From: Candidatus Wukongarchaeum yapensis
Lineage (GTDB): Archaea; Asgardarchaeota; Wukongarchaeia; Wukongarchaeales; Wukongarchaeaceae
Assembly: GCA_016840425.1 (NCBI GenBank)
Contig: JAEOSI010000151.1
Location: forward strand, 1 to 5,809
Reading direction: 5' to 3'
DNA length: 5,809 bases
Shown here: one piece after another, positions 1,344 to 3,208 of the stretch
How positions within the stretch are numbered: the first letter of the stretch is position 1
How the letters are laid out: every line of letters begins with the position of its first letter
Translations under genes and position numbers: made by a program
Notes under the pieces: model-generated
What the model saw: only the letters and a program-made list of their open reading frames with translations
Told to the model about the DNA's origin: nothing
The model's database searches: none

Positions 1344-2978
1344 GTGAGCCAGGTTTTTAGAGCGGCTGATTTGGTGTACTCTAAAGCTTGTGAAGAGATA
1401 GTTTCTAAACTCTATGAAGCAGCAATAAAAGGAAAAATAAAAGGGAGGGATTACGTCGACAAAATAAAGCATGAAATATGCGCCAAATACTCCCTACCAA
1501 AATGCCCAAGCAACTCTGAACTAATAGAAAAAATATCAGACGACCTTGAGAAGTTCCCCGTCCTTATAGGCTTACTACGCAAGAGAAGAGTAAGATCCCT
1601 TTCAGGAGTAGCAGTAGTAGCCGTAATGACCAAACCCTACCCATGCCCCCACGGTAGGTGCGCCTACTGTCCTGGTGGACCCGAACAAGATGTCCCCCAA
1701 TCCTATACCGGGAGAGAGCCAGCATCCCTCCGAGGTGCACAGCACCTATATGATCCCTCGGCTCAAGTGAAGGCTCGTATAAAACAGTTGATGAGTATAG
1801 GTCATCCTACCAGCAAGATCGATCTAATCATCATGGGAGGAACTTTTCCTTCCACGCCGATAAGCTACCAAAAGTGGTTCGTTAAACGATGTATAGACGC
1901 CATGAACCAACAAGATTCAAAATCATTAATAGAGGCTCAAAAATTTAATGAAACCGCGCCATCAAGGTGTATAGGGCTCACAATAGAAACTAGGCCAGAT
2001 TATTGCAGGGAATCTCACTTAGACCTTATGTTAACGCTTGGTGCCACCAGGGTCGAAATAGGAGTGCAAACCCTTTATGACGATGTATATGAAAAGGTAG
2101 AACGAGGTCATACTGTAGAAGATGTGGTGAAAGCTTTTCAGCTGGCTAGGGATGCTGGATTAAAAATCGGGGCTCACATGATGCCCGGTCTTCCAGGGAC
2201 GGATTATCACCGGGATCTTGAAGCTTTTCACGCGCTTTTTAACGATCCAAGGTTTAAACCCGACATGCTAAAGTTATATCCATGTCTTGTTTTAGAAGGT
2301 ACCAAGCTTTATGAGCGGTGGAGGAAGGGAGAATATGTTCCTTATTCTGATGAAGAGTTAATCAAATTGATAGCAGAAATAAAAGCTATGGTTCCACCAT
2401 GGTTAAGAATCCAAAGGATTCAACGGGACATTCCAGCCTACCTTATAGAGGCAGGGCCCAAAATAGGGCATCTTAGAGATGTTGTTAAAGAGCATATGAA
2501 AAATGAAGGGTTAAAATGCGGGTGTATAAGGTGTCGTGAGGCAGGGTTGAAAGCCCATAAAGAAGGGATAATGGTAGATATTGAAAACGTTTGTTTAAAG
2601 AGACAGAGTTACGAAGCTTCGGGCGGAGAGGAAATATTTCTTTCATACGAGGATCTGAAAAACAATGTTCTCATAGGTTTTTTGAGACTAAGAATACCTT
2701 CAAAAAACGCGCACCGCCCAGAAATAGATGAAAAAACTGCAATAGTTCGAGAGTTAAGAATTTACGGACTTCAAGTACCAATAGGTGAAAAATTTGAAAA
2801 CGCTTGGCAACATAAAGGATGGGGATCAAACCTCCTCTCAACCGCAGAAAAAATAGTGAAAGAAGAATATGACATCAAAAAACTTTTAGTCACAAGCGGT
2901 ATAGGAGTTCGCCCCTACTACGAGGAGAAAGGCTACGATCTTTTAGGCCCCTACATGGCAAAAATTATAATAACATAA
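1344..2978 (+). CDS. elp3: Elongator protein 3, tRNA uridine(34) acetyltransferase (radical SAM + KAT domains)
   Basis: 544 aa. VRSLSGVAVVAVMTKP precedes the radical-SAM motif CPHGRCAYC (C101/C106/C109). Also QSYTG, MGGTF, ETRPD, KLYP, RIQRDIP, CGCIRC (C392/C394/C397), and KAT motifs VRELRIYG, QHKGWG and GIGVRPYY. Confidence 0.96.
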   Translation: MSQVFRAADLVYSKACEEIVSKLYEAAIKGKIKGRDYVDKIKHEICAKYSLPKCPSNSELIEKISDDLEKFPVLIGLLRKRRVRSLSGVAVVAVMTKPYPCPHGRCAYCPGGPEQDVPQSYTGREPASLRGAQHLYDPSAQVKARIKQLMSIGHPTSKIDLIIMGGTFPSTPISYQKWFVKRCIDAMNQQDSKSLIEAQKFNETAPSRCIGLTIETRPDYCRESHLDLMLTLGATRVEIGVQTLYDDVYEKVERGHTVEDVVKAFQLARDAGLKIGAHMMPGLPGTDYHRDLEAFHALFNDPRFKPDMLKLYPCLVLEGTKLYERWRKGEYVPYSDEELIKLIAEIKAMVPPWLRIQRIQRDIPAYLIEAGPKIGHLRDVVKEHMKNEGLKCGCIRCREAGLKAHKEGIMVDIENVCLKRQSYEASGGEEIFLSYEDLKNNVLIGFLRLRIPSKNAHRPEIDEKTAIVRELRIYGLQVPIGEKFENAWQHKGWGSNLLSTAEKIVKEEYDIKKLLVTSGIGVRPYYEEKGYDLLGPYMAKIIIT

Positions 2979-3035
2979 ATTAAACTAACAAAAATAAAAA
3001 ATCTATTTTTCTAATAATTAAAAATTAGTGAAAAT
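2979..3035. terminator. Short AT-rich gap between convergent elp3 and tRNA-Pro; probable bidirectional oligo-T terminators
   Basis: 57-nt gap with T5 at 3006-3010 on + and several A4-A5 runs that are T-tracts on -, including 3031-3034 just after the tRNA CCA end. Confidence 0.45.
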
Positions 3036-3074
3036 TGGTGGGCGAGGTGGGATTTGAACCCACGACCACCTGCT

Positions 3075-3112
3075 TACTTGACTTACTGGAAACATGTTGT
3101 TGATCGGCGGTT
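3075..3112 (-). other. Canonical tRNA intron (37/38), 38 nt
   Basis: BHB motif: exon C32-U33-U34-G35 pairs with intron CAAG. The 5' bulge is GG|A and the 3' bulge is UA|A, flanked by the anticodon stem and a 2-bp inner helix (AC/GU). Confidence 0.92.
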
Positions 3113-3116
3113 CCCA

Positions 3117-3163
3117 AGGCAGGCATCATGCCAATCTAGAGGCTGGCATAATCCCTTTCTAGA
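3117..3163 (-). repeat. Imperfect 23-nt tandem repeat inside the tRNA-Pro gene
   Basis: + strand 3118-3140 ggcaggcatcatgccaatctaga versus 3141-3163 ggctggcataatccctttctaga: 18/23 identical with no gaps, extending one more base at 3117. Confidence 0.9.
3134..3156 (-). other. Non-canonical D-loop tRNA intron (about 17/17a), 23 nt
   Basis: The D arm has 23 extra nt. Best splice motif found: central helix exon CUAG(12-15)/intron CUAG, 5' bulge AA|A, inner helix GGG/CCU, 3' bulge AU|U with only a weak U-G outer pair (relaxed motif). Removal gives D loop AGAAUGGCA with G18G19. Exact boundaries are inferred and could shift because of the repeat. Confidence 0.75.
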
Positions 3164-3208
3164 CTACTCGCCCCACATCTTGGACGGCTCTATTTTTAGC
3201 TTCAAAGA

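Follow-up and report, generated by a model that had tools for sequence, protein, structure and literature searches.

A bulge-helix-bulge (BHB) motif has a 4-bp central helix, and the offset that separates its two strands is exactly the length of the intron. D-arm introns are a known kind of non-canonical intron in Asgard tRNA genes (PMC11291895; bioRxiv 10.64898/2026.10.13.758758): they are short inserts (median 22–23 nt) in genes that carry a further intron, have a motif of four central pairs and one flanking helix, vary in presence between close species, and, according to a 2026 census, are missed by tRNAscan-SE. That census, whose focal lineages alone hold over 1,000 intervening sequences, asked whether introns had been copied from other tRNAs, brought by mobile elements, or made through reverse transcription; it identified no general route and left intron arrival as the central open problem (bioRxiv 10.64898/2026.10.13.758758); tandem duplication and palindromes are not mentioned in it.

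The only scenarios in a 2014 review (PMC4090602) are intron-early, intron-late, and transposition. The last of these is what has been published for Thermoproteales, where, as far as that review relays the primary studies (Sugahara 2008; Fujishima 2010, in PMC4090602), introns form families across tRNA genes, lie at non-canonical positions, have relaxed BHB motifs that a heterotetrameric EndA cuts, and were gained recently at the DNA level. At intron borders, including a few in archaea, direct repeats have been noted and taken for the target-site duplications of an inserted foreign element (Rogers and Bendich 2025, PMC11782384). Searching full texts for archaeal tRNA introns together with tandem duplication returned nothing relevant, and the literature searched contains no statement of a duplication route for archaeal introns.

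In the spliceosomal duplication model, duplication of AGGT gives GT..AG. As summarised in a later paper (Rogers 1989; Hellsten 2011, Nat Commun 2:454, cited in PMC11782384), exon duplication supplies both splice sites in that model, and removing one repeat unit restores the original message. Here we describe a 23-nt insert in the D loop of an Asgard tRNA-Pro(UGG) gene, and we propose, with a probability of roughly 0.7, that it arose by head-to-tail duplication of a segment of its own tRNA and was then spliced via a CUAG/CUAG helix.

RESULTS

The tRNA-Pro(UGG) gene has inserts in the D loop and at position 37/38

The window, the whole stretch of DNA analysed (5,809 nt), is an entire 5.8-kb contig of a 2.16-Mb, 92%-complete metagenome-assembled genome from a GTDB class of only three species, and contains genes for a PyrK-like protein, Elp3, HMG-CoA reductase, and aspartate carbamoyltransferase. 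A tRNA-Pro(UGG) precursor on the minus strand (Table 1) scores 44.3 bits with the Rfam tRNA model (RF00005, 3173..3039) and carries an insert of 23 nt in the D loop and another of 38 nt at position 37/38. ARAGORN makes no call on the unspliced DNA. Removal of precursor positions 18–40 and 62–99 gives a 74-nt product that ARAGORN identifies as tRNA-Pro(TGG) and that ranks first in our own cloverleaf scorer, with all stems paired and 3 of 4 pairs in the D stem. This product meets the criteria for tRNA-Pro, having a 7-bp acceptor arm, D, anticodon, and T arms, UGG at positions 34–36, U33, and a purine at position 37. In particular, the exons retain a perfect acceptor stem (GGGCGAG/CUCGCCC), anticodon stem, and T arm; the discriminator is A, the anticodon is UGG, and CCA is encoded at 3036–3038, followed by T-runs at 3031–3034 and 3020–3024. 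A TATA-like box, TAAAAATA, which we infer to be the promoter, lies upstream of the gene; the sister species has kept it, along with the encoded CCA. There is no second tRNA-Pro(UGG) candidate in the 2.16-Mb, 92%-complete assembly. The best explanation is that 3039..3173 holds a functional tRNA-Pro(UGG) gene, present in one copy in this uncultured Asgard archaeon, with the splicing of its transcript inferred without RNA evidence.

A whole-genome Rfam search of the assembly listed 25 tRNAs, from which the tRNA-Pro(UGG) at 3039–3173 is missing; D-arm inserts therefore hide such genes from standard screens. The Rfam alignment of the sister-species tRNA-Pro(UGG) starts only at the second copy of the repeat described below.

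Table 1. Features of the tRNA-Pro(UGG) locus, in window coordinates
Feature	Precursor positions	Coordinates	Strand	Basis or sequence
tRNA-Pro(UGG) gene, 135-nt precursor		3039..3173	minus	Rfam RF00005; ARAGORN on spliced product
Repeat copy 1, degenerate	11-33	3141..3163	minus	TCTAGAAAGGGATTATGCCAGCC
Repeat copy 2	34-56	3118..3140	minus	TCTAGATTGGCATGATGCCTGCC
Predicted 23-nt D-loop intron	18-40	3134..3156	minus	BHB enumeration and best cloverleaf
Central-helix strand H_a, CUAG (exon)	12-15	3159..3162	minus	BHB enumeration
Central-helix strand H_b, CUAG (intron)	35-38	3136..3139	minus	BHB enumeration
5′ bulge AAA, predicted cut after A17	16-18	3156..3158	minus	BHB enumeration
3′ bulge AUU, predicted cut after U40	39-41	3133..3135	minus	BHB enumeration
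Inner helix 5′ strand, GGG	19-21	3153..3155	minus	BHB enumeration (n2=3)
Inner helix 3′ strand, CCU	32-34	3140..3142	minus	BHB enumeration
Canonical 38-nt intron at 37/38	62-99	3075..3112	minus	Strict BHB CUUG.GGA / CAAG.UAA
TATA-like box TAAAAATA		3191..3198	minus	18-25 nt upstream of mature 5′ end

The D arm contains a gap-free tandem repeat with a period equal to its excess length

Two 23-nt segments of the D arm, copy 1 and copy 2, are identical at 18/23 positions without gaps (19/24 when extended through position 34/57). The copies abut directly, with zero DNA between them, and the repeat has a period of 23, the same as the number of extra nucleotides in the D arm. The repeat meets the criteria for a tandem duplication, in that the copies are adjacent, gap-free, and in the same orientation, the period matches the added length, and the similarity exceeds chance. 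Specifically, the raw binomial probability of the match is ~2e-7, and the repeat statistic, taken over all periods and offsets, was reached by 0/500 mononucleotide shuffles and 0/300 dinucleotide shuffles; a harsher, ungapped score was reached by 6/200 shuffles. The similarity spans the whole 23 nt, including the interior, with 14/19 identities outside the palindrome. Copy 2 holds the functional D loop, the 3′ strand of the D stem, and the 5′ strand of the anticodon stem; copy 1 can form neither a D stem nor an anticodon stem.

The repeat is not an assembly artefact: a JGI metagenome contig carries an identical 135-nt precursor, and in three DNA runs, which come from different studies, the Logan contigs that span the repeat show no change in it. 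Relative to the window, a marsh strain has two altered bases in the 37/38 intron (3096 and 3099) and one upstream of the gene.

The palindrome CUAG of each copy forms the only length-correct splice motif

Full enumeration of BHB candidates in the D arm yields a sole candidate with offset 23, CUAG/CUAG, and only this candidate, excised along with the 37/38 intron, yields the 74-nt product. The central helix, which satisfies the 4-bp criterion, comprises pairs C12-G38, U13-A37, A14-U36, and G15-C35, and its second strand, H_b, is the same palindrome as H_a exactly one period downstream. The predicted cut lies one nucleotide 5′ of G18, and the predicted intron begins within copy 1, takes in the rest of that copy, and ends 7 nt into copy 2. 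The 5′ bulge is conserved in the sister species, and the 3′ strand of the inner helix straddles the junction between the copies. The strict hBHBh′ criterion, with both bulges closed by at least 2 bp, is not met: the 3-bp inner helix closes the 5′ bulge, and the 3′ bulge is closed only by U11.G42 (n1=1), and the motif belongs to the relaxed HBh′ class because its outer helix is a single G.U pair. The genome contains one EndA catalytic-domain gene, encoding an alpha subunit of 203 aa; published work describes Asgard EndA as an (alpha-beta)2 enzyme whose L1 loop broadens its specificity (PMC5829648).

The five differences between the copies are at positions 17 and 18, in the 5′ bulge, and at positions 21, 24, and 30. 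The change of C to G at position 21 adds the third inner-helix pair; the changes at positions 21 and 24 together abolish a CAUG palindrome that would provide a rival motif in a perfect duplication; the change at position 24 breaks a decoy D stem; and the difference at position 30 breaks a decoy anticodon stem. We infer the functional role of these differences, and the direction of the substitutions, rather than observe them.

The first-pass annotation had described the gap-free repeat of 18/23 between precursor positions 11–33 and 34–56, and this description holds, including the support of both copies by independent data from the JGI contig and three Logan DNA assemblies. Its span needs a small correction: the copies are real and lie at the limits in Table 1, and an end at 3117 takes in an extra matching T. 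The annotation had also equated the period with the 23 extra nucleotides of the D arm, now seen to be the offset of the only length-correct motif as well, and had built the central helix from the palindrome of each copy, which full enumeration bears out. Its inference that duplicating a palindrome creates a splice helix is reproduced in our model, in which a perfect newborn unit would have the CUAG motif with a 2-bp inner helix. Its suggestion of later tuning of the bulge and inner helix agrees with the position of all five differences at sites where they would tune the motif or disable decoys.

The insert is conserved in the sister species

The sister species (~89% nucleotide identity, ~11% diverged) is syntenic at this locus, and its D-arm insert differs from the one here only by G19 to A, which turns the inner-helix strand GGG into AGG and the G19.U34 pair into A19-U34. 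The sister-species gene has no 37/38 intron. The exon D loop is more divergent between the species than the intron is, and the copies are less alike in the sister species. Judged by comparison with the CGG paralogue, the UGG exon D loop of this genome is the more ancestral of the two. The greater change in the exon counts against our best explanation, since a simple picture of a neutral intron fails to account for it.

In the other genome of the class, neither a DNA query nor a D-arm/anticodon pattern found a tRNA-Pro(UGG). Across all GTDB species and the JGI metagenomes, a search for tRNA-Pro(UGG) with a D-arm insert returned only this lineage, the unrelated archaeal gene described below, and bacterial chance matches. 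A mangrove metagenome contig (X13) from a relative that is ~9% different joins 2977 to 3177 with ~130 unaligned letters versus 199; those letters were not read, and the tRNA locus may be shorter or strongly diverged in this relative.

Comparison with paralogues and with possible outside donors

The paralogous tRNA-Pro(CGG) and tRNA-Pro(GGG) genes have no D-arm insert. Both have CCAGC as the 5′ strand of the anticodon stem, in line with the first-pass annotation's comparison with other archaeal tRNA-Pro genes, and the intron likewise has CCAGC; at this place the UGG exon has come to read CCUGC, compensated by a change in the opposite strand. A30 of the intron is probably the ancestral state of the exon, because both paralogues have CCAGC, and the intron seems to preserve an older form of the exon.

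The presence of CCAGC in the paralogues leaves possible an origin in which the 23 nt were copied from a paralogous tRNA-Pro (CGG or GGG) by unequal recombination, template switching, or gene conversion. Copy 1 matches positions 11–33 of tRNA-Pro(CGG) at 19/23 positions, versus 18/23 for its own exon, and it has A30 and an 11-nt exact run, ATGCCAGCCTC, in common with that paralogue. This case, however, rests on one informative site, A30, which, all paralogues having CCAGC, is just as well explained as ancestral in the UGG gene. Ahead of copy 1, moreover, the 5′ strand of the acceptor stem has the UGG gene's own sequence, GGGCGAG and not GGGTGAG, the paralogues sit on other contigs (C215 for CGG, C136 for GGG), and an in-register insertion from another locus is more contrived than a local duplication. 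We therefore regard a paralogous template as unlikely.

The second alternative concerns RNA. The splice motif is thermodynamically weak: in isolation, the D-loop motif has −3.5 kcal/mol, versus −7.7 kcal/mol for an alternative 8-bp helix, which would bury the 3′ cut site, and −10.2 kcal/mol for the minimum free energy fold. When the whole precursor is folded, its minimum free energy structure does not contain the motif. The sole RNA run that shares words with the locus, a metatranscriptome (X20), covers 3032–3077 through the generic T arm and nothing over 3094–3177; it also covers Elp3 of a relative and, having no intron coverage and no joint, shows nothing either way. Removal of the 23 nt from tRNA-Pro(UGG) RNA is accordingly an inference, without RNA evidence, and this lack and the weak, relaxed motif weigh against our best explanation. 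The insert could thus be retained, in a decaying pseudogene or in a tRNA with an enlarged D arm, the repeat being a neutral duplication, and the relaxed motif and the absence of the gene from ARAGORN calls and the whole-genome listing count in favour of this. Such a gene would nevertheless be the only tRNA-Pro(UGG) candidate of the assembly and would have kept three perfect stems in its exons, a conserved promoter-like box, and an encoded CCA; in the ~11% diverged species, the insert and motif persist with a change that preserves pairing; and D-arm inserts are common in Asgard tRNA genes (bioRxiv 10.64898/2026.10.13.758758). We consider retention of the insert improbable.

A search for a donor of the intron with blastn-short in the assembly and ~140 loci returned only matches of 11–14 nt (E 0.09–5.5). 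The best foreign matches were of 12–14 nt (E about 0.09 to 1.4), and the only match in a tRNA gene was 11 nt of tRNA-Pro(CGG). The first-pass annotation had held that a better match to another intron would refute its reading; none was found in the 2.16-Mb assembly or in any fetched locus. The criterion for an intron family of Thermoproteales type is not met, as there are no related introns in other tRNA genes of the genome, and that for an integration scar is not met either, as the 5.8-kb window, all that could be examined, contains no integrase or mobile-element gene and no separated attachment site. An origin from outside, as a transposed tRNA intron or the scar of an integrating element with only secondary likeness to the exon, has precedents in the Thermoproteales route (Fujishima 2010, as cited in PMC4090602), in the integration-linked tRNA disruption proposed for Caldiarchaeum (PMC3293823), and in some other Asgard mini-introns that are hairpins with a flanking 7-nt direct repeat (CCGGACT, below), but it is very improbable here, with no related intron in the assembly or the fetched loci, no mobile-element gene in the window, and an exon likeness that covers all 23 nt and leaves no foreign segment.

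Other inserts that resemble their exons

A repeat scan of 72 interrupted Asgard tRNA genes identified two genes in which 0/300 shuffles reached the observed statistic: tRNA-Pro(UGG) and a tRNA-Met(CAU) of the sister species (L093, G001:C55:9843-9970, contig minus strand). The tRNA-Met gene has a 35–37-nt insert, located after the anticodon stem and before the T stem, with a copy of the gene's own T arm: AAGGGTTCAAATCC is present twice, and the copy accounts for 14 identical bases in a repeat that matches at 21/32 with period 32. The motif of this insert is strict (GUUU.AGG / AAGU.CAA), ARAGORN recognises the product after splicing, and the syntenic tRNA-Met of the present genome (L004, G000:C120:367-459) is without the insert. 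When 400 Asgard genomes were searched for duplicated T loops, genomes with matches were about as many as for a reversed-pattern control, and this tRNA-Met was the only clear within-gene copy of a T arm.

A protein-coding gene of the present genome, for aIF2-alpha (L140; G000:C70, minus strand, ~1430–1500), has a 30-nt, stop-containing insert in the S1 domain. This insert carries a 15/16 direct copy of the tail of exon 1 (GTCATATCTC[G/C]GAAAA, period 29), an inverted copy also lies between the two direct copies, and the BHB helix, UCGG/CCGA, is one base off the repeat register.

Shorter repeats border mini-introns elsewhere. An unrelated archaeal tRNA-Pro(UGG) from JGI metagenomes (L063:419-531 and L066; Ga0190316_1008670 and Ga0180300_10021944) has a 22-nt D-loop intron with a strict motif and a 15-nt variable-region intron in which CCGGAGA recurs in register, with 10/15 identity at period 15. 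A tRNA-Pro(CGG) of another genome (L049, G058:C130) has a 23-nt intron at 32/33 that consists of a 16-nt hairpin between exact 7-nt repeats, CCGGACT, which look like a target-site duplication or a minimal duplication. Thus, 7-nt in-register repeats of palindrome and bulge border mini-introns in two unrelated lineages (L063 and L049).

Palindromic or near-palindromic helices were also noted in other tRNA genes. The tRNA-Ala(GGC) gene of the present genome (G000:C174:4789-4925) has a 41-nt T-arm intron at 53/54 (CGCG.GGT / CGCG.AAT); its sister-species counterpart (L079, G001:C4:20049-20144) has no T-arm intron, and Ala(UGC), Ala(CGC), and His have an intron at 53/54 with the same palindromic CGCG helix. 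Four tRNA-Leu genes (G000 C70:3988-4090, C268:11131-11243, C189:13116-13256, and C89:3462-3612) have D-loop introns with GGCC or GGUC paired with GGUU or GGCU, near-palindromes that differ by transitions. The variable-arm introns of Leu(UAA) and Leu(CAA) have GCGU with GCGC or GCGU, and in Leu(UAA), GUGGCG is repeated in register.

Two candidates were rejected: a 28/54 repeat in tRNA-Ile(GAU), whose score is reached by 3% of shuffles and which was attributed to chance and a palindromic stem, and a 20/50 repeat at period 45 in alba, which is weak and out of register with the 36-nt insert.

A model of duplication and its reach

We modelled every second tandem duplication of 12–40 nt in 36 spliced Asgard tRNAs, scoring a duplication as successful if it had an in-register motif, made of four central pairs with at least 2 bp of flank, whose excision would remove exactly one unit. 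In this model, 44% (mean) of tandem duplications would be born with an in-register motif, versus 1.8% of shuffled inserts of the same length and place; motifs with both flanks would arise in 29% versus 0.2%. Duplications are thus predicted to be about 25 times likelier than random inserts to be born spliceable.

Extended similarity to the exon is confined, among 35 scanned tRNA genes of this genome (~50 introns by a rough count), to the D-loop intron of tRNA-Pro(UGG), and the pooled flanks of 27 non-canonical introns have no in-register excess, with an identity of 0.19–0.23 that equals the shifted controls. In a survey of introns against their flanking exons, as the first-pass annotation had proposed, the focal gene and the sister tRNA-Met stand out (0/300 shuffles each), but pooled flanks do not. 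The exon strand of the central helix is self-complementary in ~10/25 non-redundant non-canonical introns, versus a tetramer background of 15.2% (binomial 0.002), and in 3/18 canonical introns. These counts are exploratory, being our own curated counts from semi-automatic intron calls: the cloverleaf scorer resolved 41/85 genes, with Gln, Val, Arg(CCU), and several three-intron genes left unresolved, and the combination of BHB enumeration and ARAGORN was rejected as an automatic intron caller for being too permissive.

DISCUSSION

The focal intron is a non-canonical Asgard tRNA intron, of a known kind, with a new and well-evidenced origin, although its splicing and the generality of the route have not been demonstrated. 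Behind this stand direct observations: the repeat and its significance, the unique length-correct motif, its conservation, the absence of any other donor in the assembly and the fetched loci, and the presence of EndA. They confirm what the first-pass annotation had seen and support its interpretation.

Local duplication, our preferred reading, would proceed as follows. Before the split of the two known species of the genus, a 23-bp segment that starts at D-stem position 11 and ends with the first base of the anticodon loop would have been duplicated head to tail. The unit would have included the self-complementary CUAG, so that the two CUAG copies could pair at once, with identical bulges in register; because CUAG is both self-complementary and duplicated, cutting both bulges would remove exactly one repeat unit. 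The junction of the copies would have supplied CC from one copy and U from the next, pairing with GG of the D loop as the inner helix. EndA, of broad specificity in Asgard archaea, would then excise the extra copy, and the RNA ligase RtcB would join the exons. Changes in the upstream copy at positions 17, 18, 21, and 24, together with the difference at position 30, may subsequently have tuned the motif and disabled decoys, with position 30 of the intron keeping an ancestral A that has since been replaced in the exon.

The intron shares with the Asgard D-arm introns (PMC11291895; bioRxiv 10.64898/2026.10.13.758758) its length, its place in a gene with a further intron, its four central pairs with one flanking helix, its escape from a standard detector (here ARAGORN), and a setting in which intron presence varies between close species; unlike those in the census, it is demonstrably a copy of the flanking exon. 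It resembles the transposed introns of Thermoproteales, as these are portrayed in PMC4090602, in its non-canonical position, its relaxed BHB motif, the heterotetrameric EndA published for Asgard archaea, and recent gain at the DNA level, but it has no relative among other tRNA genes and its nearest match is its own exon. Unlike the border repeats of Rogers and Bendich (PMC11782384), the whole intron is the repeat, and the geometry follows from the BHB motif. A parallel in logic is spliceosomal intron gain by duplication, insofar as PMC11782384 conveys it: in both cases, exon duplication supplies both splice sites, and removing one unit restores the original message. The chemistry differs, and here a self-complementary tetramer gives the central helix of an RNA fold that is recognised by protein.

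A broader claim, that local duplications containing a self-complementary tetramer are a general birth route for BHB introns in Asgard tRNA genes and mRNAs, remains tentative, and we lean against it. If it were true, the route would explain a sizeable share of the repeated intron gains of unknown source; the focal, sister tRNA-Met, and aIF2-alpha inserts would be surviving cases young enough for the exon copy to be recognised, and older introns would retain only the self-complementary central helix.

Taken together, these sequences suggest that a small duplication can give rise to D-loop introns in situ. Of all known tRNA genes, those of Asgard archaea are the most interrupted, and this locus offers a testable answer for at least one intron: a 23-bp duplication with a 4-base palindrome would create both the helix and two in-register cut sites for the splicing enzyme, so that the mutation would be masked at the RNA level from birth. 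According to the model, a self-complementary central helix should persist as a trace of such an origin, for which existing intron catalogues can be searched, and the idea of duplication, paralleling as it does spliceosomal intron gain, may extend to the mRNA introns of this lineage.
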